The notes: generated by a model from the letters alone, not told the origin. Counted from the stretch's first letter, positions 10,913 to 27,615 are shown. The stretch is DNA of 64,000 nt from an uncultured delta proteobacterium (GCA_963708295.1 CAVPSJ010000006.1:1-64000); one strand, 5' to 3'. Numbers and translations are program-made.

Positions 10913-11010
10913 GCTGTTGAAAAACCCCCATCTGCGGCGATGTCCGGCCGCCTCACCCTCTCGGCGGCGTGGCAAGATGTCGCTCCTTATTCGTCGCGAC
11001 GCCACCCCTT
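10913..11010. mobile_element. partial MITE-like element (GCTGTTGAAAAA end family)
   Basis: gctgttgaaaaaccccc atctgcggcg matches the start of the element at 36415. Confidence 0.55.
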
Positions 11011-11819: not shown

Positions 11820-11981
11820 GGGACAGACAGACGGGTGAGAAAGCTTTAGAGCGCAACCTCTAAACCATGAGACTCAGGGACTTCAAGTCAATGAAAAGAG
11901 TATCTTTCCTGTGGCAACAAGAGTGACCTCTAACCTTAAACGTGCGCATTCTAGAGCTTTGGAGTTCCCGCTGTTTGTCCC
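11820..11981. ncRNA. putative structured ncRNA/rod-like element, copy 1 (family unassigned)
   Basis: ends pair (GGGACAGACAG/CTGTTTGTCCC; AAAGCTTTAGA..GCGCA/TGCGC..TCTAGAGCTTT); homologous to 21554-21718. Confidence 0.6.
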
Positions 11982-12049
11982 TTCCTTCCCTCCCTTCGTT
12001 CGATGACAACACACTCTCAAAAGGGAGAGAGTGGAGGTGAGAGGGGCAC

Positions 12050-13450
12050 CTAAAGTTGCCGCATGAATGCCACAAGATCCTTCTTCTCCTGCTCGCTGAG
12101 CCCGAGCTCGAGAATCAAATTAAAAAACTCTACCGTATCTTCCAAAGTAAGAAGTCTCCCATCGTGCAAATAAGGCGGGGAATCTTTGATGCCTCGTAAA
12201 GGAAAGGTCTTGATTGGACCATCTGCAGACGCATATCTTCCGTTGATCATCCGCGGTTTATAGAACCGCTCTACTTTCAAGTTGTGCATCAGATTATCGG
12301 TATAATAGGGGCCGGGGTGACAGCTACCGCAGGCAGCTTTGCCAAAAAAGAGAATCTGCCCCCGCATCTCCGGCTGGCTTGCCTTTCTCGGATCAAGCTT
12401 TCCGTCGATCCTGAGTTTAGGAGCCGGCGGGAAGTCCAGCAATGCCTGAAACTCCGCCATGAAATGGACCTGGCTCCCCCGCTCCAGAATATTGACCCCT
12501 TTCTTCGTGGCAATCACCGGATCGCCGTCAAAATAAGCAGCCCTTTGTTCAAATTCGGTGAAATCTTCGATCGACCGTAGGGCCCGCTGGGAGCCAAACA
12601 GCCGTTGGATGTGCACACCCCGAAGGCTTGGGGTATCAAGCCGATGCCGGAACTCCTGGGGCCGGATATCCCCGACAAGGTGCGTCGAGGCATTCGTGTG
12701 GCCGTTGGCGTGACAGTCAAAACAGACGACGCCTCGGCTTGGACGCTCGGACCGGCGGTCCTCGGTCTGGTTGAACTGCTGTTGGGGGAACGGTGTGAGC
12801 AATAGCCTCAAGCCTTCAATCTGCTTGGGATTAAGAATTCCATTGAAGAGCGCATAGTAATTATCCATTGTAACCAATTTCCCCTGGGAGACATCTCCAA
12901 GATCCGGACGCGTCGTCAGATAAATAGGCGCTGGAAACTCAGGAAGAAAATGATCCGGTAAGTCATAATCCAGGTCGAAGCGGGTAAGGTCCCGGCTTTC
13001 TTGTTTCTTGATCTCGTCAATATGGAACTTGGGGAAGAGCATGCCACCCTCAGGATGATTCGGGTGCGGCAGAGGAAATAGACCCGCTGGGAATACGCCC
13101 TTCTCACGAATCTCCTCCGGGCTCATCCCACCCAAATTCTCCCAGCTCATCCCCGCTGGAAGTTTGATCCGGACCCCTTCCTGAACGGCTTTGCCGCGGG
13201 ACATCGTCACCCCCGTGGCCGCGCGATTGCTCAAATCATAACGCTCATTGAGCAAATCCATCTGACGCTTCATCACCCCCGGCGTTGCAGCTTTCATCCG
13301 GGACAGGATCGTCTCAAAACTCTCTTTGATCACCACGGGAGAGTAACTCGATTCTCCTCTTGAGGGGGACTGGGCAAAAGTGGAAATCGCCACAACCATC
13401 AGAGCGAGAGTTCCCGCTGCCCACCCCATGTATTTTATCGTCTTTGGCAT
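12050..13450 (-). CDS. exported diheme cytochrome c, cytochrome c peroxidase-like
   Basis: signal peptide; CFDCH and CGSCH; TPSLRG; PPYLHDGRLLTLED. Confidence 0.85.
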   Translation of the reverse strand: MPKTIKYMGWAAGTLALMVVAISTFAQSPSRGESSYSPVVIKESFETILSRMKAATPGVMKRQMDLLNERYDLSNRAATGVTMSRGKAVQEGVRIKLPAGMSWENLGGMSPEEIREKGVFPAGLFPLPHPNHPEGGMLFPKFHIDEIKKQESRDLTRFDLDYDLPDHFLPEFPAPIYLTTRPDLGDVSQGKLVTMDNYYALFNGILNPKQIEGLRLLLTPFPQQQFNQTEDRRSERPSRGVVCFDCHANGHTNASTHLVGDIRPQEFRHRLDTPSLRGVHIQRLFGSQRALRSIEDFTEFEQRAAYFDGDPVIATKKGVNILERGSQVHFMAEFQALLDFPPAPKLRIDGKLDPRKASQPEMRGQILFFGKAACGSCHPGPYYTDNLMHNLKVERFYKPRMINGRYASADGPIKTFPLRGIKDSPPYLHDGRLLTLEDTVEFFNLILELGLSEQEKKDLVAFMRQL

Positions 13451-13725
13451 TTTTCCTTCCCTCCTTCTTATGGAATTTTATCGGTTCCGAGGTTCATCAT
13501 CGTCTCATGACCCCTCTGCCTGCCTTTGGTCCTATCAATATACACGCAGGCAACAGATACAATAATATTTTCGGCGATTCTGAATAAATGGGGTGAACAC
13601 TGTATTTCTCTTGGAGGGAAACAGTATTTTGAAACTTTTCCCCTCGCCCTTTCCCTCTCCCCAACAGGAGAGGGAAAGGGCGAGGGGAAAAACAGGGGCG
13701 ATAGGGGATTCCGTCGGGAGATTTT

Positions 13726-13938
13726 TTATCTTGAGGATTTTCGAGGTTTCATCCTGGAAACTACTCCGTAAGTGCTTTTATATATCTCTATCCATTGATC
13801 CCTGAATTTTTCATAATTCAGCGTCTCGTTTCTTTCTGACTTGAGCAGTTCAAGGACTAAGTAACAGGAAGCAAGATTTGAGGAAATAATAATATTTCTC
13901 AGCTCATTGAATTCCGGTGGCAAGGGTTTTAGCTCCAT
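13726..13938 (-). CDS. hypothetical protein (70 aa)
   Basis: GGAGG RBS before ATG; AT-rich. Confidence 0.65.
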   Translation of the reverse strand: MELKPLPPEFNELRNIIISSNLASCYLVLELLKSERNETLNYEKFRDQWIEIYKSTYGVVSRMKPRKSSR

Positions 13939-14070
13939 GGTTGACCTCCTCTGATGATGGGATGATTTTTCTTCCCTTCGGTTCCTGATCCTCCCTTTGC
14001 CGTCAGGGCTTCCTGTCGGACGGCCTGGACATGGGAAGATCTCAAAAGAAAACGCTCGGGGGAGTGGAAG

Positions 14071-14400
14071 TTATCCTTTATCGCAGCCAAGATATTTGAA
14101 CAGGCCGCTGATATAGTTTCCCCAGGTTGGAATCAATCTATCAATTTCATACGACAGCAGAGTTAATTTCCCATTATGGACCTTCGTATGGACCTCTTCC
14201 AGCTTTTCATATCTCAAAGGCCATGTCATCTTCCCTGATTGATTCATCATGTAGAAAGTTTTCTGTTTTTCGTCCAATCCGAGGACTCGCAATTGGTTAA
14301 GGCCATCCGCAGCCCAGAATTTTACACCCTGATCCTTCATCTCCTTCAATTTTTCCCAACTAAAGGGGCACTTCGGAACAATCTCCAGGATTTCAATCAT
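14071..14400 (-). CDS. hypothetical protein (109 aa)
   Basis: GAGG RBS; globular protein-like composition. Confidence 0.7.
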   Translation of the reverse strand: MIEILEIVPKCPFSWEKLKEMKDQGVKFWAADGLNQLRVLGLDEKQKTFYMMNQSGKMTWPLRYEKLEEVHTKVHNGKLTLLSYEIDRLIPTWGNYISGLFKYLGCDKG

Positions 14401-14710
14401 GATTTCCTCTTATTCTCTACGCCTTCCTGTTCGTCTTCTACATCAAAAGTGTATTCGACCAGAACCATGGGCCAACGAAAACTCCGTCCGGCTCTCCCTT
14501 CTTGACATTGACTATCTGCGCGGTGGGGAAAAGGAAAAGTTTTCGGATTCCCCCCGCCGAAATCAATCCCAAAAAACGATTGAAGTTCTTGATGGGACCT
14601 CGGAACTCTGAAGGAACAATCGGTAATTTCTCGTGCCGCGGAGTGATCTCTACAAGATATAAGAAAACGGTTACACGCCGCTGATCGAACTTGTAACCCG
14701 TTATTTCTTC

Positions 14711-14785
14711 TGGAGGCGGCAACCGGATTTGAACCGGTGAATAACGGTTTTGCAGACCGTCGCCTTACCACTTGGCTATGCCGCC
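14711..14785 (-). tRNA. tRNA-Cys (GCA)
   Basis: GGCGGCATAGCCAAGTGGTAAGGC...CTGCAAA...GGTTCAAATCC...CCA. Confidence 0.97.
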
Positions 14786-14787
14786 AT

Positions 14788-14862
<75 letters not shown>

Positions 14863-14885
14863 GTCTTCTTTTCTTTCAACGTTAA

Positions 14886-14914
14886 AAATTACAAGATTTG
14901 CCCTTCGATGTCAA
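14886..14914 (-). promoter_or_regulatory. sigma70 promoter of tRNA-Gly/Cys
   Basis: TTGACA-17 nt-TAATTT, about 24 nt upstream of tRNA-Gly. Confidence 0.7.
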
Positions 14915-15049
14915 TAGGAAAAGGAACAAAAGATGGGGGGGGTTGAAAACACTGGGCCGGGCTGATCAGGAGAGAGAGAGACCTGAAGACGAGGGGATGA
15001 GGAAGATAAGGGGATAGGGGGATAGGGAGAAAAAAGACAATACAAAAGT

Positions 15050-15613
15050 TCAGGCAATGATGGACTTCAGATATTTCCGAAGATAGTCAACTCCGGAGAC
15101 AACGGCTACGATCAGCGCAACCCACAGAAAAACGATCCCGACCGGATAGAAACTGACGGAAAAATACTTCCCATTGAGGATGAGAAAGAAGATGGAGGTC
15201 ACTTCGAAAACCGTTTTATATTTTCCCAGTTGACTCGCCGCAATGACAATACCTTGAGTGACCGCAATTCCTCTTAAGCCGGTGATGGCAATCTCTCTTC
15301 CGACAATGACAATGACCATCCAGGCTGGAATCTCTCTCGCCGGAATGAGCGCGATCAATGCCGTCACGATCAAGAGCTTGTCCGCAAGGGGATCAAGAAA
15401 TTTCCCCAAGGTCGTCTCCATGCCGCGCCGTCGCGCGAGATATCCATCGAATGTATCCGTCACAGCGGCTCCGAGAAACAGGAGCGCCGTAAAGAGCTGG
15501 TATCCCTTCCACGCGTCAGAAAGGAGGGCAAGGATGAGGGGAATAGCCAAAATCCTGAGGATGGTTACCCCGTTCGGCAGACTCATGATCTGCTCGTGAT
15601 TCAGTTTTTCCAC
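15050..15613 (-). CDS. pgsA: CDP-diacylglycerol--glycerol-3-phosphate 3-phosphatidyltransferase
   Basis: LPN.VTILR, TDTFDGYLARR, GKFLDPLADKLL; start GTG 15613 (leaderless) or ATG 15586. Confidence 0.93.
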   Translation of the reverse strand: MEKLNHEQIMSLPNGVTILRILAIPLILALLSDAWKGYQLFTALLFLGAAVTDTFDGYLARRRGMETTLGKFLDPLADKLLIVTALIALIPAREIPAWMVIVIVGREIAITGLRGIAVTQGIVIAASQLGKYKTVFEVTSIFFLILNGKYFSVSFYPVGIVFLWVALIVAVVSGVDYLRKYLKSIIA

Positions 15614-15620
15614 AGAAGGG

Positions 15621-15649
15621 ATTATACTACCGGATTGATTTCTCGGCAA
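15621..15649 (-). promoter_or_regulatory. sigma70 promoter of pgsA, leaderless geometry
   Basis: TTGCCG-17-TATAAT-7 nt-GTG. Confidence 0.65.
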
Positions 15650-15659
15650 GCTTTAATAA

Positions 15660-16280
15660 TCAAGGCAGGTAGGATTGATAATAGGCTAACACTTTCTTGA
15701 CGTAATCCACGGTTTCTCGATACGGCGGGATCGAACGCACCTCGGCAACGACATTCTCTCCGGCATTATAAGCGGCCAGCGAGAGCCGGAGGTCATCGTT
15801 GAAAAGGGAAAGGAGATACTTAAAATATCTTACTCCCCCCTCAATGTTCTCTCTCGGATTAAAGCTGTTCGAAACGTTCAGCCGGGAGGCGGTCTCCGGC
15901 ATCAATTGCATCAAACCCCTCGCTCCTTTTCTTGAAACGGCCGCGGAGTTGAATCCTGACTCTGCCCGGATGATTGCCTTGATTAAGGCAAAATCCACCT
16001 GGTACTTCTTGGAGAATTCAGCGATCAGTGAGTCATATTGATTCGAATCTTTCGAAGAGAAAAATCGGCTCTTATTCTCAACGTCATCTTTGCTCTCCCG
16101 GATGTAGAGCTTAAATTTAGGGTCTCTAGGACAGTTGGTAAAATGAATGACCCCATTTTCATCTTCGTAACGATAAATACCCGCTGTGGAAGCCAAAGGC
16201 ATGAAAAAAATACTAAATAAAATCAACAAGGTGGCAATGCAATACATTAAATTCCGGTCCTCGATGTCAATATTGGCCAA
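15660..16280 (-). CDS. lytic transglycosylase (SLT) with N-terminal DUF4124-like domain
   Basis: IYRYEDENGVIHFTN; AESGFN, GLMQLMP, AAYNAG, ETVDYV; start uncertain. Confidence 0.9.
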   Translation of the reverse strand: MANIDIEDRNLMYCIATLLILFSIFFMPLASTAGIYRYEDENGVIHFTNCPRDPKFKLYIRESKDDVENKSRFFSSKDSNQYDSLIAEFSKKYQVDFALIKAIIRAESGFNSAAVSRKGARGLMQLMPETASRLNVSNSFNPRENIEGGVRYFKYLLSLFNDDLRLSLAAYNAGENVVAEVRSIPPYRETVDYVKKVLAYYQSYLP

Positions 16281-16404
16281 AAACTACCATAACTTGTCAC
16301 TTTCGTCAACAAAACTTCAGTCTCAAGTAATTTCAAAATTCTCTCAACTGGATGAAATCAAAGGATATTTCTTGAACTATATGAAATATCGCTGAATGGA
16401 ATAT

Positions 16405-16420
16405 TGCAATCTCTGTGCCT
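16405..16420 (-). promoter_or_regulatory. sigma54-type promoter upstream of the SLT gene
   Basis: AGGCACAGAGATTGCA fits GG-N10-GC. Confidence 0.55.
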
Positions 16421-16629
16421 ATTGATCGTTAAAGATCTCTCTGCCAAATGGATAGGAAAGGTCTCTTCCCCCGGTCCCGGATTCAATCGCAGAAATCCGT
16501 CAGATCCAGGGCGCAGGTCTCGATGAATTCAAACATGATCTTATGCGAACCTGCCTCTCCGGCAAGATCTCCGATATTGACATCTTTGCAGTCGTCCAAA
16601 TCGACGCCTTTCCGGGATACGAACTGGCT

Positions 16630-17952
16630 TTACGGGTACATCTTACCCATGCCTCGTTCCAATTGTGCCTTAGCGATGTTGAAATCACTCAACGCGCCAT
16701 AGTAATTGACTCTCGCCTGGGCGAGCAATGTGACCGCAATTAACACATCGGTTTGCGTCGCCACCTGATACCGATACCTTTCTTCAAACATCCTCAGGTT
16801 CTCTTCTGCCTGCTCGATGGCCTTCTCCGCGGTGCCGATGTTCTTTTCCGCCACCAGCATGTTGAGATAATCATTCTTTACTTCTAATGTGACCGAGTCG
16901 ATGAGTTGATTTTTTGAATCTTCAGCCTGGGTGACTTTGACCTTGTTCTCTCCAACCTTGAACGCTGTATTCCCCCAGTCCCAAAGAGTAAAGGTGGCTA
17001 AGGCCTGGATCGTCCACCTGTCGCTAAAACCAACCCCCCCGCTCAGGTCCGCGTTGTCGGAGAATCGACTATAGTTGCCCGAAAGGCTGACCGTTGGGAA
17101 GAATCCACTCCTGGCAATCTTCACACTCTCTTTTGCCTGGTCGATGGTTAATTGAGCGGCCTTGATCTCTGGCCTTAGTCGGAAGGCTTCTTCAAGAGAC
17201 TGCTCGAACGACAATGGGAAGGCTTTGTGTGCAAGGATGTCGACCACCTCGAAGGGCATGTTGACGTCTCTCCTGAGCAGGATATTGAACGAAGCCTTGG
17301 CCGCAGTCACGTCATTCGCTGCCTTGACCAGGCTTTGCTTCGCATTGGCAAGTTGCACCTCCCCTTGAAGCACATCATTCTTGGGAACAATTCCAACGTC
17401 GAAAAAGGCTTTGGTCACTTCCAATTGAGCCTCAAAATTTTTCACTTGCTGCTCAGCTACTGCTAAGAATTTCTCCGCCCTTAAGATTATGAAGTACCCC
17501 ACCCTCACCTGAAGGACCAAATCCACTTTTGCCGTCTCCAAACTCTCTTTTGAAAGATCCACACCTAACTTCGATGAACGATAATTCGCTAGGTTCTGCC
17601 CCCCGGTAAAAAGAGGTTGATAAAGGGTCGTATTGAAATTGTAAATGTCTCTACTCGTGGGGGTGATAAGACCAGGAACAGCGGCCTGCGTCACTCCTAT
17701 CGAAATGGGTGCGTTATATCGGTTCCAATAATATTGCCCCGTCCATTGAGGGAGGAAATTTGTGATTGCCTCCTTGCGCCTAAATTCAGAGCCTATAATT
17801 CCCATCGAAGCAGAATGAAGTGTCCAACTTCTCTCCATGGCGATCTTGATGCTCTCCTCCAGGGTGAGAGGTGCCTGAGATTCTTGTGCCTGGGCGGCAC
17901 CTGCGAAAACCATTGCCCCTAGAATGAATCCTACGAACCATCTCATTTTCAT
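16630..17952 (-). CDS. TolC-family outer membrane efflux protein
   Basis: signal peptide; LTLEESI..A, QPLFTGG, RPEI, duplicated OEP repeat. Confidence 0.9.
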   Translation of the reverse strand: MKMRWFVGFILGAMVFAGAAQAQESQAPLTLEESIKIAMERSWTLHSASMGIIGSEFRRKEAITNFLPQWTGQYYWNRYNAPISIGVTQAAVPGLITPTSRDIYNFNTTLYQPLFTGGQNLANYRSSKLGVDLSKESLETAKVDLVLQVRVGYFIILRAEKFLAVAEQQVKNFEAQLEVTKAFFDVGIVPKNDVLQGEVQLANAKQSLVKAANDVTAAKASFNILLRRDVNMPFEVVDILAHKAFPLSFEQSLEEAFRLRPEIKAAQLTIDQAKESVKIARSGFFPTVSLSGNYSRFSDNADLSGGVGFSDRWTIQALATFTLWDWGNTAFKVGENKVKVTQAEDSKNQLIDSVTLEVKNDYLNMLVAEKNIGTAEKAIEQAEENLRMFEERYRYQVATQTDVLIAVTLLAQARVNYYGALSDFNIAKAQLERGMGKMYP

Positions 17953-18026
17953 CGACCTGTCTCCTCCATCGCTTATATCCTTAGACGGGGACTAAGAACA
18001 TTTATTCACTTTTTGAATGGTTATTT

Positions 18027-18055
18027 ATCGTATTGCAAAAAAAGAGTGCTGTCAA
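18027..18055 (-). promoter_or_regulatory. sigma70 promoter of the tolC-like gene
   Basis: TTGACA-17-TACGAT. Confidence 0.6.
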
Positions 18056-18217
18056 ATGGAATTCGAGAGGCATTTCGAGTGATCTGGCCGTAGCTTGAAA
18101 CACTCCTCCGTCTCCGCCATTCCTTTCACCCGAAGTTGATTTAAGCGGTCTCACGAGGCCCGGGGCATCGCCTTCCCTCTCTACGACGTCTGCGGGGATC
18201 GCCTGAAATCCCGTACG

Positions 18218-18832
18218 TCAGGTCTTGGACGAAAGCGAAACGATCTTTCCGCCCACCGCCAGGGTCTGGACGATGACCCCTTTCAGGGATTCGATGATGC
18301 CTAGATACAGGGGTGAATGCTTTGGCACACAAATCCCATTAATCAATCTTTCCTCATGGACTTCGGAATAACCGTCCGCGATCTTGAACATCGACCTTCC
18401 CTGCTCGCCGACTTGTTGGGCGAGGGATTTACTCCCGGTGGCGAACAGGTTCGGCAGATTTTTCAGAAGTTCCGTCGTTTCTTGAAAGAGATCGTTCACC
18501 TCTTTATCAGCCTGATCACTGAAGACGATATGGTTTTCAAATTTCCCCCTCACCCGATCCAAAGTACTCTGAATATTGTAAGTCAAGAGACCCAGGCTGG
18601 AGGCGATGGAAAGATAAGGCTTGATCTGTTCCTTCTCCTTTTCAGCCGGCGGGGTCTTCGAAATAATGAACCCGGTTAATTCTGAAGAGGTTTCGTAGAT
18701 CTTATCTTCGAACACTTCCACTTCTCTGAACGACGCCTCTGTGGGCCTCTGAAACCCCTCAAAGGCCAATTCCAGCATCCTCATTAAGTTCTGACAAACC
18801 AGGATCATCTTTCCCTTTATTTCCTTATCCAT
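18218..18832 (-). CDS. PhoU-like helical bundle protein
   Basis: FSDQA..E, HEERL..G.C.PK.SP.YL motif as in the PhoU-like domains of Na/Pi cotransporters. Confidence 0.75.
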   Translation of the reverse strand: MDKEIKGKMILVCQNLMRMLELAFEGFQRPTEASFREVEVFEDKIYETSSELTGFIISKTPPAEKEKEQIKPYLSIASSLGLLTYNIQSTLDRVRGKFENHIVFSDQADKEVNDLFQETTELLKNLPNLFATGSKSLAQQVGEQGRSMFKIADGYSEVHEERLINGICVPKHSPLYLGIIESLKGVIVQTLAVGGKIVSLSSKT

Positions 18833-18945
18833 CTTCCCTCTCTCCAATGAATTTAAGGATCTTTCCGCCCAAAGATGACCGGCCTTCCGCTTCACCTGTC
18901 TTTCCAAAGACTAAGACCTGCTCTATGAGAATTCTAAACCTTAAC

Positions 18946-20200
18946 CTAAAACAAGTTCAGTTGCTCTTTGACTTCCGCTTCTCCTCTTCTCTCGGGAAAG
19001 AGATTGATTTTGCCGTAGACGCCATCATGGCCCGGAACGATTGAAACCTTTCCCTGCCTCATCCGGACAATCCCATCCAGGATCGGGGGGGGGAGCAAAG
19101 GAAGCCAGTTCATCCGGAGTGGCGTCGAGAAGAATTCTAAATTCCGATCCCCCCCTCTCGATCAGCCTTTCATACTCAGCTTCGACTGCCTTCGTCCCAA
19201 CTCCAACGGCCAGAGCTTCCGCGACGATCTCCTCCAGAGGAATAAGGTGGATGGAGGGAATGGCGTTCTTCGGAATAAAGCCCTCCGGTCGGTCGGCGAG
19301 TTCCTCCACGCGGTGCATCACCCCGATCGTCAACTTTTTGCGGCAACTGGGGCAAAGATACTGGTGTGCCTTGGTCTGAGACGGAGAGAAGCACACGCCG
19401 CATTCCCGATGACCGTCGTAATGATACTTCCCCTCCTCCGGAAAAAATTCGATGGTGAAGAGAAGTCTCCTCCGGTCCTTCTTTCGAATCGTTTCGGCGA
19501 TCTCCCTGTAATCCAGCGGGCAATCGAAGACGTTCGCTTCCCGTCCCAGCCGGTTCGGGGAGTGGGCGTCGGAATTGGACAAGAGGGTCAGGGAATCGAG
19601 AGCGGACAACCTCCAGTTCATTTCAGGATCCGATGAGAGGCCTGTTTCAACGGCATGAATATGCGAAGACAGTTCCTCGAAACATTCCTGAATGGAGTCG
19701 AACCCCGAGTTCGCTCCAAAAATCGAAAACCAGGGTGTCCAGATATGAGCGGGGATGATCAGGCAATCCGGGGAGATATCCAGGACCATCTTCGCCAATT
19801 CCTTTGCTGTAAAACCAAAAATAGGTCTCCCATCCGATGAGAGTTTCCCGAGGTTTCCCAGCCTGGAACGGATGGCCTCGACCACTTCAAAGCCGGGGGC
19901 AAAAATGAGAGTGTGGATCCGTCCTGCCCCTTTCCATTCTGAGTATAAATATTGCAGACCTCGGTCGTTAAAATGATACTGAACTCCCGTTTCTTCCTTC
20001 TTCAGCTTGAAGAGCCCATTCCCTGACGGCTCCAGCTTGGACCTCAGTTCCGCGAAATAAGTGGGATGGGTGAAGTCCCCCGTACCGAGGAGAGCAATCC
20101 CTTTTTTCTTTGCCCACCGCGCAAGGGTTTCTACCTCCATCTCCTTGCTGGTGGCCCGACTGTATTTGGAATGAATATGAAAATCCGCAATAAATCGCAT
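18946..20200 (-). CDS. PHP-domain endonuclease Q family protein (frameshifted in this assembly)
   Basis: ADFHIHSKYSRATS, GTGDFTHP, SNSDAHS, GKYHYDGHR.C, CPSC; C-terminus ...PGHDGVYGKI...QLNLF in another frame after a G8 run. Confidence 0.85.
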
Positions 20201-20213
20201 CGTCTAACCCTTG

Positions 20214-20345
20214 AAATCCGAAGCACGAAATCCGAAATACGAAACAATTTCAAAATTCTAAATCCGAATGTTCAAAACTTGTTTAGAATCTTCGTCATTC
20301 GGAATTCGAGTTTGTTTCGTGCTTCGATATTCGAATTTCGAATTT
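20214..20345. repeat. inverted heptamer-repeat element (AAATCCG/AAGCACG family)
   Basis: aaatccg aagcacg aaatccg aaatacg aaacaa ... ttgtttcgtgcttcgatattcgaatttcgaattt. Confidence 0.85.
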
Positions 20346-20358
20346 GAGAGAGCAAACA

Positions 20359-21444
20359 TTAGCATGCACTCTTGGAGAATGTTGCTAGACGTTTTATAGC
20401 GTCCATCTTTTCCCGGTCGCCCACCTTGGCTTTTTCAACCGCGGACTTCAATACCTCAATCGTCCGATCATAGACTTGTCGATCCACGGGATAGGGATGG
20501 CCATCTTTCCCTCCATGGGCAAAGCTGAATCGCGTCGGATCTCTGAAGCTGGGTGAGATTCCGTGAATCAGCTCCGAGATGAGAGCTCAAGGCCCGCAGG
20601 CTTTTCGGGCCCACTCCCCGGATTCCAAGAAGTTCCTCAAAATTCCGGGGCAATGCTCATAGATTTGAATAAACGTTTTCTCCAGCCTCTCCAGGCGAAT
20701 CTCTTCCATGGGAACGGGATGCTCTCTCGGAAGGAAAAGCTCATTTACCTTCTTCCCTTCGGCGATCAAAAACTCGGGTTTCTCGTGGGAAAGGTCGGCG
20801 ATGGATTGCCTGGTCCCCTTACTCTCAGCCGCGACGAGATTGAGACCTCTCCTTTTTCTGGTCGCAGCAGACTGCCCAGTGCGGTTCACAGACAAAATCT
20901 TTTACCCCCAGGCTCAACCAATGGTATCTCCGGGCATATCGGTGTCTCTTCATTCATGCCCTGCTGGACCACGGCCCATGGACCCTGGATGGGTGAAAAA
21001 GAACGTGTGATGATAGATCTGGTACCCATCCTGAACGGCGGCACTATCGACCTTTGCAGACATCCGGCTTGCATAGATCAAGGGGCCTCCGTCCACCGAC
21101 CCTCCGGTCGCAAATCTCCTCGATCTCAAGCGGGGTCTTTCGTGGAGGTCCTTCCTTTCCCGCCTGCGATGATAGAATCCCAGCTCCTCCTCCATCCCTT
21201 TGATCCCCTCTTTCAGGGCACCACAGACGGTCGTGGTCACGCCGCTCGAATGCCAATCAAACCCCAGCGCACAGCCGAAGGCCTGAAACCAGAAGGGATC
21301 GGAAAGCCGGGAAAGCATTTCTTCCGTCCCGAAAACGTCGATGATGAAAAGGGTGATCTCTTTCGCGAGGCTCTTCATCCTCTGAAAGAGCCATGAGGGC
21401 GCCTTCCCATAATGGAGCGGAAGATGAGCCACGCCTGTCTTCAT
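20359..21444 (-). CDS. DUF763 family protein (several frameshifts)
   Basis: LPLHYGKAP.WLF.RM, DWHSSGVTT, WAVVQQGM, GVGPKSLRAL, FAHGGKDGHPYPVD spread over several frames. Confidence 0.8.
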
Positions 21445-21553
21445 CTCTACCCTCTTCGCCTACGGGAATAAAATATCAGACCCTTCATTTCGTCTTACGA
21501 TCTTACTCGCTCCCCTCCCCCGTCAAGAGACGGTGTGGCTGAAATTCCAAAAA

Positions 21554-21718
21554 ACGGGACAGACAGACGGGTGAAAAAGCTTTAGCGCGCAACCTTTGCC
21601 CCTTAGGACTCAGGGGCTCTAAGTCCATTCAAAAATCGAATTTTTTGAGGCAACGACAGTTCCCCCTACCCTTAAACGTGCGCATTCTAAAACTTTGGAA
21701 TCCGGCTGTTTGTTACGT
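21554..21718. ncRNA. putative structured ncRNA/rod-like element, copy 2
   Basis: colinear homolog of 11820-11981 with the same terminal stems. Confidence 0.6.
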
Positions 21719-21768
21719 CTTTATCTTCCTTTGATATACGAATGCAATCTCTCAGTGATAGGTCGGGG

Positions 21769-22026
21769 TCACCCCGCGAGCTTATAAACGACGTCGTGTT
21801 CTCTCACCCGGTCTTTGATCTTAATCCCGATGTCCGCACCCGGCCCCGCCTCCTGGACACTCGCGTTTTCAATCTGCATGGAGTCGATTCCTTGAGTGAC
21901 ATCGGTCGTGTGGCCTACGATGTGGATGGTCTCCCCCACCTTCAACGACCCCTCGGATAGCCGTATCGCGGCAACGCCGATTTTTCCAAAATATTTGATC
22001 ACCTCGCCTATTTTCTTCTCCTCCAT
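21769..22026 (-). CDS. translation elongation factor domain II-like beta-barrel protein
   Basis: IG.V..YFGKIGVAAI.L...LKVGETIHI.G...Q.IDSMQIE...VR..D.VYK. Confidence 0.85.
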   Translation of the reverse strand: MEEKKIGEVIKYFGKIGVAAIRLSEGSLKVGETIHIVGHTTDVTQGIDSMQIENASVQEAGPGADIGIKIKDRVREHDVVYKLAG

Positions 22027-22049
22027 CTTCCCCCTCCTTTCTTAGAACT

Positions 22050-23087
22050 TCAACGGATGCCTATTTCCTCGAGGCCTTCCAAAACGTCCTTCACTTCGAC
22101 CGCCCTGAGACACTCCGGGTCCCTGCATTGGAAGAATTTCTCTTGAGAACACGGAGAGCAGTGGATTCCCCTCCAAACCACAAACGTCTCTTCCCCCCTC
22201 GGGGACCAGACGCTTTGGTCCGTGGGACCAAAGATGGCCAGTGTCGGAAGTCCTAACGCAGCCGCCATGTGAGAGATACCGGAATCATTTCCAACGAAAA
22301 ACCGGCATCCGTCCATCACAGAGGCCAGCTGGAGAAGCGTCAGCCCCTTCGCCAGGACCGGGGAGTTGGGTCCCGTTGTTTCAAACGCCTTCCGGACCTC
22401 TGGCCCCTCGGCCGGGCCAAGAACGACAAGGATTTTTGAGTGATAACGATCTTGAAGGATACGAGCGAGATTCAAGAATCGATCCAGCGGCCACGCCTTC
22501 TTCTTGCTCCCGCTCCCCGGATGGAGGATGAACACCTTCGACCGTTCTCCCGGGGACACCCCCCGGCTTTCCCAGAAATTTCTTGCCCACTCTCGGTCCG
22601 ACTTCTTTAAATAGAGCCTGGGATTGGGTCCGGAGGGGCGAATCCCGTACTGGTCAAGCTGCTTGAGAAGATGATCGGTGATATGAACCTTCTCATCCAA
22701 AGGCGGAAAGGGGTGGATGGGAAGGATTTGTCCCTGACACACTCTCTTCAAATTTCCGATCACCGTTCCCTCTCCGTCCTTTCCAAAGGCAACGATGAGA
22801 TCGAATGTCTTGAAGAACTCCGAGAGCGTAAAATCTAGATTCCCTTCTCGAGTAAAGAAGGAGGCCATTCCTTTTTGGTCCACCGAGAAGATGTCATCCG
22901 CGTAGAATCGCTCGTGCGCCAACTCCAGGATTCGCGGATATCCCATGATCACTGATTTCGCATGCGGAAAAGCCTTTCGAAGGGTTTCGAGGGTGGGCAA
23001 CGCAAGAATGAAATCACCCAGGGCGCCCTGGTGAAGGATCAGGATGGATTGAACCTCAGGGTCTTTTTTTGAATCAGGAGAGGCCAT
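22050..23087 (-). CDS. glycosyltransferase family 9 (heptosyltransferase-like)
   Basis: GALGDFIL, HPGSGSKKKAWP, GNDSGISHMAAALG.PT.AIFGPT. Confidence 0.9.
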   Translation of the reverse strand: MASPDSKKDPEVQSILILHQGALGDFILALPTLETLRKAFPHAKSVIMGYPRILELAHERFYADDIFSVDQKGMASFFTREGNLDFTLSEFFKTFDLIVAFGKDGEGTVIGNLKRVCQGQILPIHPFPPLDEKVHITDHLLKQLDQYGIRPSGPNPRLYLKKSDREWARNFWESRGVSPGERSKVFILHPGSGSKKKAWPLDRFLNLARILQDRYHSKILVVLGPAEGPEVRKAFETTGPNSPVLAKGLTLLQLASVMDGCRFFVGNDSGISHMAAALGLPTLAIFGPTDQSVWSPRGEETFVVWRGIHCSPCSQEKFFQCRDPECLRAVEVKDVLEGLEEIGIR

Positions 23088-23294
23088 CCGTTTTTTCCTC
23101 TCAGTCAGGAAATTTTTCCCGGATGCTTCCGATGAAGCACCCCATGGAAGGCCCCTTGCTGAAGACCATTCCTTCACCGTCCCAAAAGTGACCCCGGAAT
23201 CATCGATATTGCTCCGGTTCATGACCTGGCAAACACTCGCCTGGATGACAAAATCCTTTTCTAACATCGGACCTCAGCCACGATTCCTTCGGCT

Positions 23295-23684
23295 TTAAGA
23301 GGGATCGACCTCTTTCTCCAACGCCCTCTCGATCGCGTCCAATAGCTCCTCGGGGTCGTAAGGTTTCTTTACGTAGAAACGAGCCCCCAGCGCCATAGCC
23401 TTTTCCTCCGAGTTCCTATCCGGGCTCCCCGTCAGAAAGATCACCGGAACAGCAACGGTATCCGTGGACTCCCTCAATTTCTCGGCAACGCTGAATCCAT
23501 TCCCCGCCGGCATTCGGATATCCAGGAGGATGAGATCCGGTTTTTCTTTGAGGGCCATGAAAATACCCTGAGCCCCGTCAAAGGCGGTGACGACTTCATA
23601 TCCCGCTCGACTGAGCCGGATCGTCAACGCCTTGACAATATCCCGCTCGTCATCGACGATAAGAATCCTTTTTTTCTCCCCCAT
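23295..23684 (-). CDS. single-domain response regulator
   Basis: ILIVDDE, PDLILLDIRMP, VIFLTG, KP. Confidence 0.93.
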   Translation of the reverse strand: MGEKKRILIVDDERDIVKALTIRLSRAGYEVVTAFDGAQGIFMALKEKPDLILLDIRMPAGNGFSVAEKLRESTDTVAVPVIFLTGSPDRNSEEKAMALGARFYVKKPYDPEELLDAIERALEKEVDPS

Positions 23685-23755
23685 ATTCTCCCCACTCTCC
23701 CCCTCGGCTCTTTATGATCTCCCGGCTATTCTTGAACCATGCATCGGGCCATGCA

Positions 23756-25066
23756 TCAAGGGCTCATCCCCTTCGTCTCCTGCGAACGCGGGTCAGGGGA
23801 GTCCCCCTGAAGCCAGCCTGCCATCTCGTCCCTTGTTTGATGGAAAGCCTCCATCTCTCCCTTTTCGATGGGAAAGCCCGTAGGAAAGATTTCTCTCAGC
23901 GGATTCCGGAAATGTCCATCTTTGGACAGCCGATAGTCCAGATGGGGCCCGGTGGAAAGACCGGTCGATCCGACATATCCGATGATCTGTTTCTGGCTCA
24001 CCCGCGCTCCCCTTCTGATCCCAGGGCCAAAACCGGAAAGATGACCATAGTAGGTGGTATACCCGTTCATATGGCGGAGGATAACCTGATTCCCGAATCC
24101 ACCATTCCATCCGCACGACGTAACGGTTCCGTCGGACACAGCCCATATCGGCGTACCGGGCGGAGCCGCGTAATCCACGCCATAATGGGGTCGCAGTCCT
24201 CCCAGGATCGGGTGTTTTCTGGCCTGGCTGAATTTCGAGCTAATCCGGTTAAACCTCAAAGGAACTTTCAAGAAGGCTCGCTTCAAGGAAATTCCTTTCC
24301 CGTTATAATATCCGTCCTTATACCGGATTCCTTGAATGATCCTTTCTCCCCTCTGGTACTCTACGGCACGGATCGGTCCATATTGGATAAATTGATCTCC
24401 TTTATAAAGTTTCTCCACGACCACTTTGAATCGATCCCCCTCCCGGACATCTTTATAAAAATCGATTTCCCAGGCCAGGATTTCCGCAAAGGCAATCGTC
24501 AAGGGATCCTGCTCCCCGGCCGCGTCCATCGCCTCGAAGAGAGAGGAACGAATCTCTCCAACGACTTTGACCAGACGGCTTTCCAGGAGAACTTTCTTTC
24601 TTTGGACAACGTACCCTTCGGAATCTTTCTCAATCTCATAAATCTCCGTAGGACTCGCTTCATAAATGAACCTTACCAGCTCTCCCTTCATATCATGGAA
24701 GTACTGGTAAGTTCCTCCTTTGATCTTCCTAAAATTAACGTGCGGTTTTAGTTTCGAGATAATGAGATCGATCCATTGAAGAGGAATGCCCTTCTCGGAT
24801 AAGGATTGGAAAAGGGTGCTCCGGTCTTTCACCTTCCCTTCAATGGTTTGGAGCGGGGGCTCCTGTGAAGCCGACGAAACGGGAGCAGGAGTAGGAGCGG
24901 TAGCGGGAGGCGGTGGAGGGGTGGAGGGGATGACAAAAAAGTAGACCAGGAAGAAAAGGCCGACGAGAGAAAATCCTGAGAGAAGAAACCATTTCCGCCT
25001 CTTCCTCTTGGCCTTAAAAGGTCTTCCTTCGAACCGACCCAATTTCCCCGACTCTAATGGCTCCAT
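23756..25066 (-). CDS. M23 family metallopeptidase (MepM-like)
   Basis: HYGVDY, YGHLS, TGPHLDY; N-terminal TM helix. Confidence 0.92.
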   Translation of the reverse strand: MEPLESGKLGRFEGRPFKAKRKRRKWFLLSGFSLVGLFFLVYFFVIPSTPPPPPATAPTPAPVSSASQEPPLQTIEGKVKDRSTLFQSLSEKGIPLQWIDLIISKLKPHVNFRKIKGGTYQYFHDMKGELVRFIYEASPTEIYEIEKDSEGYVVQRKKVLLESRLVKVVGEIRSSLFEAMDAAGEQDPLTIAFAEILAWEIDFYKDVREGDRFKVVVEKLYKGDQFIQYGPIRAVEYQRGERIIQGIRYKDGYYNGKGISLKRAFLKVPLRFNRISSKFSQARKHPILGGLRPHYGVDYAAPPGTPIWAVSDGTVTSCGWNGGFGNQVILRHMNGYTTYYGHLSGFGPGIRRGARVSQKQIIGYVGSTGLSTGPHLDYRLSKDGHFRNPLREIFPTGFPIEKGEMEAFHQTRDEMAGWLQGDSPDPRSQETKGMSP

Positions 25067-25114
25067 GTTGGGCTCTTCATCTTAAATTTGCAGAAAAACC
25101 ATCCCGAAAAGGTG

Positions 25115-26101
25115 TCATAGCATCCCCCTCAAGAAACGCGAGGCATCTTCGGGAGGCGTGGGATTGACAAAAAAACCCGTCCCCCATTCGAACCCTTCCC
25201 TCAGTCCGATTCGTAATCGGGTTTCCATGTGCCAGTGGTATTCCGACCGGTGGAATCGCTGGACGGGAGAAGTGTGCAACGTAAGACTATAGGGCGGATC
25301 CGCAAGGAGTTCAAAGAAACAATGGAACAGCGACTGAATCCCGGCGGATAGGTCCGCCACCTGTGCTTCGGTGATGTTGTGAAAATCAGGGGAGTGAAAC
25401 TTTGGGACGATCCAGGTTTCAAAGGGGTAGCGTGAGGCAAACGGGGAGAAGATCAAGAAATGGACGGTTTCCAGAATCACCCTTTTCTTAACCGAGATTT
25501 CTTCCTTAAGGATGTCACAGAAAATACAGCGCTCCTTCCGTTGATAGTAATCCAGCGTCCCGTAGATCTCCTCGTCGATTCGCTTCGGGATGACCGGCAT
25601 CGCCAGGATGTGGGAATGGGGGTGGCGGTTAAAGATGCCCGGGTAATTCTTCAAGATCAGGAACTGCTCAAATCGCCGATCCTTTCCCAACTCGATCAGC
25701 CTCCCCTTATAGGCCAACAGGATTTTCTCAATCTGCCTCGGATCAAAAGTGGCCAGGTTCTGATCATGCTCAGGAGCCTCGACAACGATCTCATGGGCGC
25801 CGATGGCCTCCATGACATCGTACATCCCCTCCGGTCTCCGGTCGAAAGTCCCTTCGATATGGAAGAAAGGGAACTTATTCGGAATCACCCGAACGGACCA
25901 TCTTCCCCCTCCCTCCTGTTTCAACGAAAAAGTCTCCTGGGGGGTCATCCCTTCGTTGCCCGGACAGAAGGGACAGGGCCCCTCCGTGTCACGGCGGCCG
26001 AAAGGCGGCTTGAAGGAAAGGTAATCCGCCGGCCCTTTGGGATCGTCGTTGGTCACCACCACCCACATTCCTGTCACAGGCTCTCTTCTCAGTTCTGCCA
26101 T
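25115..26101 (-). CDS. GalT-like HIT-superfamily nucleotidyltransferase
   Basis: ELRR.P..G.WV, CPFCPGNE..TP, VRVIPNKFP, CIFCD, YHWH.E, GFEWGTG; active site HPHSH. Confidence 0.85.
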   Translation of the reverse strand: MAELRREPVTGMWVVVTNDDPKGPADYLSFKPPFGRRDTEGPCPFCPGNEGMTPQETFSLKQEGGGRWSVRVIPNKFPFFHIEGTFDRRPEGMYDVMEAIGAHEIVVEAPEHDQNLATFDPRQIEKILLAYKGRLIELGKDRRFEQFLILKNYPGIFNRHPHSHILAMPVIPKRIDEEIYGTLDYYQRKERCIFCDILKEEISVKKRVILETVHFLIFSPFASRYPFETWIVPKFHSPDFHNITEAQVADLSAGIQSLFHCFFELLADPPYSLTLHTSPVQRFHRSEYHWHMETRLRIGLREGFEWGTGFFVNPTPPEDASRFLRGML

Positions 26102-26111
26102 CGCACCCTTT

Positions 26112-26699
26112 CTAAAAGAGGAGGGACTGGTAAATATATTGTCTTCCCCGATGGGAATCTTCTTTTCCCATGATCGCCCCCTCGACTCGCACAACGAGAC
26201 GCTTCTTGTAAAGATTGAGAAGCCGCGTGCCGCTCGTGTTCATCTCAATCCCTTCCTCCTCCGATAATTCCCTGAGCGTCAACTGCCTCCTCTTCATCAC
26301 CCGGGTCAGCGTGTGGACCAAATAATTATTCAGCGAACCGATCAGTTCCCATTCTTCCGTCCCCGTGGCCAGGACCGCCAATTTTTTTCTTTCCAGGGCG
26401 ACGCCGATGTTCTCCACTTGTGAGGGACTGAGATTTTTCAGGAGAAGAAACTTTTCGCCGTATTCACCACTCCACAACCGGGAGACCATCTTGGCCACAA
26501 CCTCGTCGGCCCAGGAAAAATCGATGGGCCCCATCCCGGAGAAATCGAGGACCAGGCAAACCGATCCCTTCTCCTTTCCCAGAATCCTCTCAAGGCCCTC
26601 CCGGATCCGGATACCCCGTGAGCGGCCGGCCATCTCCTTCGACCCGTTTCTCAACAGGGCGTGGGTCAGTTTCCTCAGAGAGAGGGTGCGCTTTTCCAT
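26112..26699 (-). CDS. STAS-like domain plus winged-helix protein
   Basis: LVLDFSG...IDFSWADE (STAS-like); C-terminal TLRELS...TRLLNLYKKRLV.R...GRQYIY (wHTH). Confidence 0.7.
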   Translation of the reverse strand: MEKRTLSLRKLTHALLRNGSKEMAGRSRGIRIREGLERILGKEKGSVCLVLDFSGMGPIDFSWADEVVAKMVSRLWSGEYGEKFLLLKNLSPSQVENIGVALERKKLAVLATGTEEWELIGSLNNYLVHTLTRVMKRRQLTLRELSEEEGIEMNTSGTRLLNLYKKRLVVRVEGAIMGKEDSHRGRQYIYQSLLF

Positions 26700-27099
26700 C
26701 GTCGTCTTCTTCTTCTTCTTCAATTGATTCAGTTGAACCAATTAACCACAATCCTCAGCGCTTGTCAAGTGATTTTTAGGAAACAGTGTCGCCCATTGCA
26801 GCCCTGAAGGAAGAGACAATCGAGTTCCTGGCTCTTATGAATAGGTCCACGAATGAGTAGACATCTGACTAACCCCACCCCCACCCTGCCCTCCCCCTGA
26901 AGGGGAGGGAAAGCATTATGTTCCTCCCCCTTCAAGAGGTTAGGAGGGGGATGGGGATTTTGCCCGAGCAGTATAATCATCTTCTCAATGACGGCCTTAT
27001 TGATAGCATGCGGTCTTCGAGGAATGGCCAAGCGTTGCTTGCGGAGAATGGAATCAGGGACCTCAGGTGTTCCATCAAGAGGGCTGCGGGGACACGGTT

Positions 27100-27411
27100 T
27101 CAATGAAGAACGGAGTCCGGATCTGTTCGAATCCGAAAGGGGCCTTCCCAGGGGTGCCGAATCTCATCTACGAGCCGATCCCGGCAGCTCTTGCACATGA
27201 TCAGGGTGATCTCTTCATAGACATCTTTCTCCATCTCCTTAGGGTCCGCCTGTTCAACTTCCTCAAGCAGACTCTTCAATTGTTGATCGACATCCCCGGC
27301 CGGTTCTGAAAGGATCCCGTCAAAACCCGAAAAAACCTTGATATGGACGACGTAGAATAAGCCGCCCGGCTGGAGACCTTTCCCGCATCTGGAACAATTT
27401 CTTCCTTTCAT
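27100..27411 (-). CDS. hypothetical protein with two CxxC motifs
   Basis: CSRC ... CKSC; GAGG RBS. Confidence 0.7.
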   Translation of the reverse strand: MKGRNCSRCGKGLQPGGLFYVVHIKVFSGFDGILSEPAGDVDQQLKSLLEEVEQADPKEMEKDVYEEITLIMCKSCRDRLVDEIRHPWEGPFRIRTDPDSVLH

Positions 27412-27513
27412 CGTTTCCTCGTTAGACTCCCCTCCCCCTGAGAGACCGTGTCGCAGTATGAAAATGCGCCATTTTCCCCCTTCTTCAAACTTCATTCCAG
27501 CTTTCCGGAAAAG

Positions 27514-27615
27514 GAGAGAGGCGGTCGGGTGAAAAAGATTTAGAGCGGCAACCTTTAACCGTTTGGATTCATGGTGCTAACCCTATGAAGACGTTCGATT
27601 GCGACACAGTCTCTC
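27514..27615. ncRNA. partial/diverged copy 3 of the rod-like element
   Basis: cgggtgaaaaagatttagagcggcaacctttaacc aligns with the left arm of copies 1 and 2. Confidence 0.45.

Follow-up and report, generated by a model that had tools for sequence, protein, structure and literature searches.

Bacterial MITEs are described (PMC10969869) as elements of less than 500 bp that carry terminal repeats of 4-30 bp and, in young copies, direct repeats, and that lie in intergenic regions and give stable stem-loop transcripts. In one of them, Chunjie of Geobacter uraniireducens, the terminal repeats are 21 bp and the direct repeats 9 bp long (PMC3184786). Insertion sequences can also aim at repeats: PMC1525189 reports REP targeting by members of the IS3, IS110, IS4, IS256 and IS5 families, and PMC2516522 states that members of the IS1031 group commonly recognize three nucleotides as their insertion site.

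We analyzed a 64,000-nucleotide stretch of DNA from an uncultured delta proteobacterium (GCA_963708295.1, CAVPSJ010000006.1:1-64000), hereafter the window. An earlier note, made from the sequence alone, had described in it a rod-like element of about 163 nt at three intergenic places, preferably a 6S-like or protein-sponge RNA and, as a fallback, a structured mobile unit. The fallback turned out to be right. The repeats are, with high confidence, non-coding, non-autonomous DNA transposons (MITEs). They measure about 221-255 bp, and what was described as a 163-nt rod is the palindrome in their interior. They constitute a previously unreported MITE family of an uncultured Thermodesulfobacteriota clade; full-text literature searches, partly judged by title or abstract, revealed no paper describing the element.

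Copies of the element in the window

The features of the three window copies are listed in Table 1. As first described, copies 1 and 2 are colinear (about 80% identical) and have a core in common with the third copy, and the neighboring genes encode a di-haem cytochrome c (two CXXCH motifs), an 85-aa EF-Tu-domain-2 ORF and a GIDA/TrmFO-type protein. The boundaries of the 163-nt unit were drawn too narrowly, as the true units include 16-bp terminal inverted repeats. The third copy, which had been called partial, retains both termini and carries an internal deletion. The orientation rule of the earlier note, with every copy 3' of a minus-strand gene, does not extend to the whole genome, the arrangement being mixed among its 59 copies.

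Table 1. Location of the element copies and associated features in the window
Feature	Position	Strand	Basis
Copy 1, full-length element, 235 bp, subfamily A	11784..12018	+	nhmmer family match, terminal repeats
Copy 1, left terminal inverted repeat, degenerate	11784..11799	+	comparison with terminus consensus
Copy 1, right terminal inverted repeat, degenerate	12003..12018	-	comparison with terminus consensus
Copy 1, inner palindromic rod (structure of the earlier note)	11811..11987	+	folding, covariation
C-rich arm of target hairpin, left of copy 1, outside the mobile unit	11761..11780	.	
G-rich arm of target hairpin, right of copy 1	12022..12046	.	
Copy 2, full-length element, ~225 bp, subfamily A, degenerate termini	~21527..21751	+	nhmmer family match, terminal repeats
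Copy 3, 172-bp internal-deletion derivative, subfamily B, both termini	27442..27613	+	terminus matches

In the rod of copy 1, about 26 pairs form the closing stem, and the apical part is variable. This is an old copy: each of its terminal repeats showed four mismatches to a 13-nt consensus, and the flanking triplets were unequal (GGG at 11781-11783 and AAA at 12019-12021). Copy 2 has the C-rich arm on its left side only. The termini of copy 3 showed two mismatches (left) and none (right) to a 14-nt consensus, and its flanking triplets were TGA (27439-27441) and TCA (27614-27616), the latter being the minus-strand stop codon of trmFO. No exact flanking 3-bp repeat was present at any of the three window copies, so that their status as MITEs rests on family membership.

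Copy number and distribution of the family

The element is not confined to three copies. BLAST gave 10 matches in the genome, and nhmmer (two rounds, E<1e-3, non-overlapping matches) gave 59 in 4.95 Mb, 35 of them near full-length. The copies are dispersed and intergenic and include deletion derivatives. Full elements are non-coding and measure about 221-255 bp; the 69 elements with both termini fell into length bins from 120 to 300 bp, mostly 220-249 bp. Relative to the flanking genes, as given by crude ORF calls, 26 of the 59 copies were opposite to both, 13 had the same direction as both and 20 were mixed.

The element was present in 20 of 24 genomes of the host's taxonomic family and in 0 of 16 outside it. 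An exact 22-nt pattern matched 80 public loci, 78 of which carry the element, and those with the element were nearly all MAGs labeled Thermodesulfobacteriota, Syntrophaceae or delta proteobacterium. An Acidobacteriaceae-labeled locus (L118) was rejected as a chance pattern match. An Anaerolineales-labeled locus (L094) is a genuine copy on a 2.3-kb contig, whose label probably arose by mis-binning. The relative G010 has undergone a recent burst and contains an eight-copy subfamily with 97-100% identity. Many element matches across the family genomes sit at contig ends.

Terminal repeats, target duplications and the target hairpin

The ends of the element are 16-bp inverted repeats (GAGACTGTGTCGCAAT). 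Allowing up to two mismatches, the 14-nt terminus matched the genome at 61 places, and many of these matches form pairs that enclose a core at a distance of 210-224 bp; the 16-mer terminus had 46 matches in G010 as compared with 0 for a reversed control. Immediately outside the termini, 3-bp direct repeats were exact in 39 of the 69 elements with both ends and agreed with at most one mismatch in 54, while offset controls gave 0, 0, 1 and 1 of 69. In the G010 burst the triplets were perfect in 8/8 copies, and the flanks varied between copies.

The sequences next to the duplications are strongly biased. Among the 69 elements, the left flanking 8-mers were composed of 63% C and 26% T, and the right flanking 8-mers of 63% G and 26% A. 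The element is inserted exactly between these C-rich and G-rich arms, which places it in the 3-nt loop of hairpins that already existed. Two young copies in G010 interrupt both hairpin loops of another repeat family, P, and the same loops are intact in the 14 P copies displayed from the window genome. At the empty sites of window copies 2 and 3 the C-rich/G-rich hairpin was absent; for these copies, therefore, the left arm either preceded or accompanied the element, unless a later rearrangement altered the site.

A long hairpin that targets hairpins could also be of the REPIN/PATE type, with a Y1 (HUH) transposase mobilizing it in single-stranded form as RAYTs do with REP sequences, and the genome does have nine Y1_Tnp matches, seven of which are paralogous open frames of 316-338 aa. 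However, neither target duplications nor terminal inverted repeats are known from this mechanism in the IS200/IS605 and RAYT families (PMC3184786), and the perfect duplications in all eight copies of the G010 burst argue against it. Moreover, none of the nine Y1 genes had a terminus (up to three mismatches) or an element copy in its flanks or neighboring genes within 2.5 kb; the sole terminus-like match near these genes was inside one Y1 ORF itself. We thus regard movement by a Y1 enzyme as very unlikely.

Filled and empty sites

Comparison with related genomes revealed empty sites. Copy 3 was missing at the orthologous spacer in seven aligned genomes of the same genus, and this spacer measured merely 16-41 bp in 9 of 14 genomes. 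Copy 2 was missing at the orthologous spacer of the relative G009, and one metagenome contig omitted 21531-21663, inside copy 2. Two relatives lacked the segment 11760-14711, which has copy 1 at its left edge, and one metagenome contig passed over it. Contigs from metagenomes of related strains also skipped or replaced parts of copies 1 and 2. A junction from 26909 to 27614, seen in three sequencing runs, was discarded, as one side comprised 21 letters and lay inside repeats.

The earlier note had named target-site duplications and empty-site alleles, along with the lack of a transcript, as the marks of a MITE. Duplications and empty sites were found, and for this reason we read the repeats as MITEs and not as RNA genes. 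The family also shows the other characters of such elements, with a length below 500 bp, no transposase gene and terminal inverted repeats; the duplications are present in young copies, and the dispersed copies have filled as well as empty sites.

Fold of the interior and the RNA-gene reading

Folding reproduced the long rod in both full copies. The folding z-scores were -5.0 (copy 1) and -3.1 (copy 2) on the plus strand and -3.9 and -2.9, respectively, on the minus strand. In the closing stem, 17 of 26 pairs showed compensatory changes, and the observed values were matched by 0/500 shuffles. This covariation is not diagnostic of RNA, because the paired ends of a transposon covary anyway. The apical hairpin, whose pairing was said to be kept despite sequence change, was absent from the RNAalifold consensus of six subfamily copies; a direct count gave 61% pairing and 0 compensatory pairs, a result that 435 of 500 shuffles also reached.

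These results bear on the view that the repeats are free-standing ncRNA genes, each with its own promoter, whose products act as polymerase decoys in the manner of 6S RNA or as sponges for a protein. The plus-strand rod with its central open region, the covarying closing stem and an excess of G-U over A-C cells on the plus strand are in line with it, as is the failure of RF00013 to find a canonical 6S RNA in the 91%-complete genome. Nevertheless, 0 of the 59 copies matched RF00013, and the Rfam search of the element gave no match to any family at gathering or E-value thresholds. RF00013 had no match in the window or the whole genome; since the control was positive in just 5 of 14 well-known genomes, this null says little on the existence of a 6S gene. 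A promoter scan at copies 1 and 2 detected no promoter-like site, sigma-70-like ones included, and the copies lie in both orientations relative to genes. The apical structure is unconserved, the minus-strand fold is nearly equal to the plus-strand fold, and mobile DNA is indicated by the inverted repeats at the termini, by the target duplications of 3 bp and by the empty sites. The RNA-gene reading, which the earlier note had preferred, is therefore highly improbable on the missing Rfam match, the missing promoter at copies 1 and 2 and the 59 copies in both orientations. An RNA-library contig set contained element sequence from other loci, possibly through DNA carry-over; this single library, available as contigs only and covering a small share of the stretch, is uninformative on strand, ends and level, and window parts without RNA cover carry no evidential weight.

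Strand bias of the stem

The strand had been left as a puzzle, with G-U pairs pointing to the plus strand. This excess is real: among 119 distinct copies, 346 G-U cells were counted on the plus strand versus 107 A-C cells, and changes within clusters from Watson-Crick pairs led to G-U versus A-C in 37 versus 21 cases at an 85% threshold and in 20 versus 8 at 90%. The signal is weak in another respect, as raw transitions in paired columns were balanced (44 of G-U type versus 43 of A-C type). Paired columns had 0.44 changes per site versus 0.92 in unpaired columns, and transversions made up a smaller share of changes in stems than in loops. The G-U strand bias is not expected from a model that acts on DNA alone.

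One explanation would be a MITE whose hairpin is in addition selected on one strand, either as a stabilizer, terminator or processing site of transcripts or as a single-stranded DNA form folding on the plus strand. The G-U counts, overall and within clusters, and the slower, transversion-poor change of the stems are consistent with such selection. In co-directional gene contexts the element was more often opposite (26) than parallel (13), and the opposite orientation places a U run after the hairpin in the mRNA for subfamilies A and B; the element sequence in the RNA-library contigs may be counted here too, subject to the same DNA carry-over. On the other hand, the raw transitions are balanced, orientation is biased by no more than 2 to 1, on crude ORF calls, and the strand favored by G-U pairs (+) is opposite to the one that would terminate or stabilize most neighboring mRNAs. 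A terminator scan at copies 1 and 2 found nothing spanning the rod, and covariation of the arms is expected when the two ends of a transposon bind the same protein. We consider single-strand selection unlikely.

Search for the parent transposase

No pair of termini 0.7-3 kb apart was found in the window genome or in G010, which is assembled in two contigs; pairs 4.5 and 5.8 kb apart enclosed host genes, such as those for V-type ATPase subunits. Searches of the host genome with PF01609 and PF13586 gave no element with matching termini, and an IS5-like element on contig C6 (68.7-70.3 kb) was rejected as the parent, as it has unrelated inverted repeats of its own. The same two models were searched across 55 family genomes, and 35 loci were taken (30 DDE_Tnp_1 and 5 DDE_Tnp_1_2). 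None of these 35 had a paired, correctly oriented terminus at 3-4 mismatches, five lone matches of that quality being the only ones. The assemblies covered by the transposase search are 91-95% complete and possibly lack plasmids.

Terminus-pattern searches of G010 and the relative G003 likewise revealed no parent element, and a whole young copy and its left 60 nt, used as queries, gave no solo end adjoining a gene. Twelve one-mismatch matches to an 11-mer proved to be an internal coincidence in a 12-copy insertion sequence with unrelated ends. Five insertion-sequence types of G010 (rve and DDE_Tnp_4 among those checked) were rejected because their ends are unrelated to the element termini. The ends are likewise unrelated in the one IS5-like element of G010 that has a TTA target duplication (3 bp). 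Visual comparison showed a 12-nt match of copy 1 to an end of a G010 IS5-like element; since the family consensus has another sequence there, we took this match to be coincidental.

Proposed mechanism and significance

A transposase supplied in trans would bind both termini, make cuts staggered by 3 bp in a hairpin loop and insert the element between them. Recognition of the target probably requires that the hairpin be extruded or single-stranded, and the length of the duplication would fit DDE enzymes like those of IS5 (IS1031 group) or IS3. The arms of the interior stem may be complementary because both ends match the same protein, or they may come from one duplicated end; RNA involvement would be unnecessary for either. 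A putative host effect, exerted where such a stable hairpin lies in a 3' UTR or separates two cistrons, would be a by-product.

It is also conceivable, though improbable, that the MITE is aimed by structure and not by sequence when it lands in the 3-nt loops of C-rich/G-rich hairpins, those of the P repeat included, and that it keeps its 26-pair stem by compensatory change. Its recent burst in a nearly closed genome that holds no element with matching ends would then point to a transposase of an unrecognized kind or location that reads extruded hairpins; alternatively, an intermediate of RNA or single-stranded DNA that folds in a strand-specific way would be involved, as hinted by the one-strand G-U excess.

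The identification of the repeats as MITEs removes a false lead, that of a new regulatory RNA family. The element family breaks assemblies in the host clade, and it is usable as a strain marker because its positions differ between close relatives. Its aim at hairpin loops and its nesting in another repeat are useful for studies of how transposases choose targets, and the missing transposase poses a well-defined problem that could be solved with closed genomes.

Comparison with known systems

The element resembles 6S RNA (RF00013) in its rod shape, open middle and similar length. 6S RNA has its own promoter, is encoded by one or two genes per genome, and is an RNA that binds the RNA polymerase holoenzyme and serves as a template for product RNAs. 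The element differs in its 59 copies without a model match, its terminal repeats, its target duplications and its empty sites.

Compared with the IS1031 group of the IS5 family, the element has the same 3-bp target duplication, which makes this group a possible source of the transposase. Ends of the IS1031 group begin with GAG, and so do those of the element; among the loci examined, no IS5/IS1031 member with the termini of the element was found.

IS1397 and ISKpn1 (IS3 family) and other REP-targeting insertion sequences are alike in that they insert into repeated extragenic palindromes. IS1397 inserts in the loop with a duplication of 3-4 bp. These insertion sequences are autonomous, with a transposase and other ends, whereas the element is gene-free and, unlike them, targets C-rich/G-rich hairpins, in part those carried by another MITE-like repeat.

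The closest likeness in kind is to bacterial MITEs such as Chunjie, Correia, ERIC, RUP and Nezha, which are also small and non-coding with terminal inverted repeats and direct repeats, and which share the dozens of dispersed intergenic copies, the truncated derivatives and the very stable stem-loop (PMC10969869, PMC3184786). In contrast to these MITEs, the element is not A+T-rich; the genome contigs have 47-52% G+C, and the target is G+C-rich. With its 16-bp repeats and 3-bp duplication it differs from Chunjie (21 and 9 bp) in both lengths. The element is thus an ordinary kind of bacterial repeat, and what is unusual about it is its choice of target, the loops of hairpins.

Boundaries and age of the element

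We found the element to be very probably a MITE family, which is new as a family and of an already known kind. A structured mobile unit had been offered as an alternative reading in the earlier note, and it was borne out by 3-bp target duplications and empty sites. The three stretches first recognized in the window were present and related; copies 1 and 2 aligned from end to end, and the left half was shared by copy 3 as well. Extension of the alignment revealed that the 163-nt rod, originally taken for the full unit, was embedded in a longer unit whose ends were inverted repeats with the consensus GAGACTGTGTCGCAAT. Copy 3, which had been regarded as a fragment, contained both termini. The 14-nt terminus gave 61 matches with at most two mismatches in the source genome, many of which were paired 210-224 bp apart around the core, and there were further repeats that contained the same termini with a different interior.

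The window copies are old, as their flanking triplets did not match (GGG/AAA for copy 1, CAA/TCA for copy 2 and TGA/TCA for copy 3) and their termini were degenerate. The right triplet of copy 3 (27614-27616) is the stop codon of trmFO, which is TGA here and TAA in seven relatives. The start of the ORF downstream of trmFO is probably 27411 and not 27495; therefore, copy 3 probably sits in an intergenic spacer whose flanking genes run in the same direction. We also observed that two other copies in the source genome (L039, C4:851862; L040, C13:143091) shared an insert of ~34 nt at the same spot of the left arm, which formed a small G+C-rich hairpin.

Element copies and P repeat in the window
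Feature	Position	Description
Copy 1	11784-12018	full unit with termini
Copy 2	about 21527-21751	full unit with termini
Copy 3	27442-27613	both termini, internal deletion
P repeat copy	26830-27005	inverted-repeat-like ends, two internal C-rich/G-rich hairpins; 55 BLAST HSPs in the genome

Copy number and distribution

BLAST with copy 1 as the query revealed 10 matches across the 20 contigs (4.95 Mb) of the source genome. An nhmmer profile of seven copies, iterated once, gave 59 non-overlapping matches (E<1e-3), 35 of which were near full-length. These comprised at least three subfamilies; one with seven members included copies 1 and 2, and a different one included copy 3. By crude ORF calls, 57 of the 59 matches were located outside ORFs. 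The 59 showed no single orientation relative to the flanking ORFs: 26 were opposite to both, 13 were parallel to both and 20 were mixed. Upon BLAST searches of 40 relatives, the element was found in 20 of the 24 that share the family of the source genome, with many matches at contig ends, and in none of the 16 that belong to different families within the class and phylum. A degenerate 22-nt pattern, matched exactly, occurred at no fewer than 80 loci in a collection with one genome per species. Among the matches listed, the element was confirmed by nhmmer at 78 of 80 loci, and the record titles were almost all uncultured Thermodesulfobacteriota, Syntrophaceae or delta proteobacterium MAGs. The remaining two loci were a chance match and a locus cut by a contig end.

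Other features of the window were also observed. A third dispersed repeat (10900-11012, ~110 nt) accounted for 42 HSPs genome-wide, including 17 near full-length ones; it recurred at ~90% identity elsewhere in the genus, showed a very high metagenome-contig depth and had no Rfam match. A fourth (20205-20350) was palindromic and A+T-rich, with 71 HSPs in the genome (40 near full-length), and position 20214 is the break point of many metagenome contigs. Additionally, the DUF763 gene (20587-21444, minus strand) was apparently split into ORFs 20950-21444 and 20587-20895, which may reflect a frameshift or an assembly error.

Target duplication at hairpin loops

In many copies, the three bases directly outside one terminus recurred directly outside the other. 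We analyzed 69 elements from this genome and all loci fetched from other genomes, each having both termini with at most one mismatch in 11 nt; duplicate flanks and elements less than 25 nt from a sequence end were left out. An exact 3-bp direct repeat was present in 39 of the 69, and a repeat with at most one mismatch in 54, versus 0, 0, 1 and 1 at control offsets of 3, 6, 9 and 12 nt. Outside the triplets, C predominated in the left flank (63%, with 26% T) and G in the right flank (63%, with 26% A) in the same set. These C-rich and G-rich flanks are the opposing arms of one hairpin, and the duplicated triplet is its loop. In the 2-contig relative G010, eight 227-bp copies were 97-100% identical, with different flanks in each and perfect triplets in all eight (AGA, TTG, GAA, TTG, CGA, TCA, GAT and TCA); therefore, the arms belong to the target and are not carried by the element.

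The two hairpin loops of a second repeat family, which we named P (~190 bp; at least 14 uninterrupted copies in the source genome), were split by two of these young copies, and the loops of P are targets of the element. The G010 copies in P are nested insertions, and the intact P copies act as paralogous empty sites. Short C-rich-to-G-rich hairpins numbered 86 in the source genome versus 31 of reverse polarity, and the loop was TCA in 13 of the 86. G010 also contained a nine-copy rve-type insertion sequence of 1273 bp (L221/L222); the copy examined was likewise located at a C-rich/G-rich hairpin, with an apparent 5-bp duplication.

Filled and empty sites

Copy 3 lies between trmFO and the following ORF, in a spacer of 202 nt in the source genome. 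Among 14 same-genus genomes, this spacer was 16-41 bp in nine and 71-123 bp in four, and its left flank was unmatched in the 14th; an alignment of seven of these genomes showed copy 3 to be cleanly absent. Copy 2 was missing from the orthologous spacer of the related genome G009, and another relative, G003, had unrelated sequence there instead. Copy 1 marked the left border of a segment of 2.95 kb (11760-14711) that both genomes lacked at this place. Metagenome contigs from related strains, a single contig in each case, skipped 11760 to 14711, replaced 11772-11989 with 63 other letters or skipped 21531-21663. The C-rich/G-rich hairpin was not present in the empty sites of copies 2 and 3, which counts against a simple insertion picture; therefore, either the left C-rich arm of these copies arrived together with the element or preceded it, or a later rearrangement changed the site.

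The segment 11760-14711 carries a 466-aa di-haem cytochrome c with two CXXCH motifs. Its flanks are only 40-183 bp apart in G009 and G003, and the cytochrome gene is located elsewhere in both.

Folding and the RNA readings

Both full copies folded as long rods (as RNA), as had been described, and did so on either strand (z of -5.0 and -3.1 on the plus strand; -3.9 and -2.9 on the minus strand). The closing stem of 26 pairs was 94.2% paired across 32 copies of the source genome, with 17 pairs changed on both sides; none of 500 shuffles reached these values, and slid controls showed 34-53% pairing. This co-variation is real, yet it is no proof of RNA, because the two ends of a transposon bind one protein and co-evolve, and palindromic MITEs can derive from a duplicated end. 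The covariation claimed for an apical hairpin failed; the hairpin was absent from the consensus of six subfamily copies, and when counted directly, it was 61% paired without any compensatory pair and was equaled by 435 of 500 shuffles.

With regard to the strand, 119 distinct copies contained 346 G-U cells versus 107 A-C cells, and changes within clusters from Watson-Crick pairs to G-U versus A-C numbered 37 to 21 (85% threshold) and 20 to 8 (90%). Raw transitions in paired columns were balanced (44 to 43) and no different from those in unpaired columns, which counts against a strand bias. The change rate per site was 0.44 in paired columns versus 0.92 in unpaired columns. We regard these counts as at most a weak hint of single-strand selection.

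In the Rfam search, only three tRNAs in the window passed the gathering thresholds, and permissive thresholds gave no credible match around copy 1. The 6S-like RNA proposed in the earlier note found no support: RF00013 had no match in the whole genome, so by this model there is no resemblance to 6S in any of the 59 copies. No sigma-70-like promoter was found at copies 1 and 2.

Search for a parent transposase

We found no pair of termini spaced 0.7-3 kb apart in the source genome, G010 or G003. The ends of five insertion-sequence types of G010, set by copy comparison or flanking inverted repeats, were all unrelated to the element termini. Across 55 genomes of the family, 35 transposase loci were retrieved and none contained the terminus, and searches with a young copy or its left 60 nt revealed other element copies only. 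IS1397 duplicates 3-4 bp in REP loops, and the ends of the IS1031 group start with GAG. According to an excerpt of PMC2516522, members of the IS1031 group (IS5 family) commonly share a 3-bp duplication, and according to an excerpt of PMC1525189, five families include insertion sequences that target REPs. An IS5-family insertion sequence (DUF772 and DDE_Tnp_1; 17-bp inverted repeats) lies past the window at about 68706-70330 of contig C6, with its transposase frame split in two.

An origin of the element from a Y1 transposase, of the REP/RAYT-like kind, is unlikely, as the element has target duplications and terminal repeats and is absent from the flanks, within 2.5 kb, of all nine Y1_Tnp genes in the genome. 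Of the nine Y1_Tnp (PF01797) places, seven were paralogous open frames (316-338 aa) that matched weakly, another was a shorter match, also weak, and the last was a canonical Y1 transposase of 185 aa; one place (C6 70371-71336) lies directly past the window end. None of them was flanked by the repeats examined.

Comparison with known elements

The MITE family showed every tested feature of the definition in the relevant part of a review (PMC10969869), with the exception that no autonomous partner was found. It is notable for targeting hairpin loops, for nesting within a second repeat family and for a recent burst without a visible transposase. The element differs from Chunjie, a MITE of a related lineage, for which part of PMC3184786 describes 21-bp termini and 9-bp repeats.
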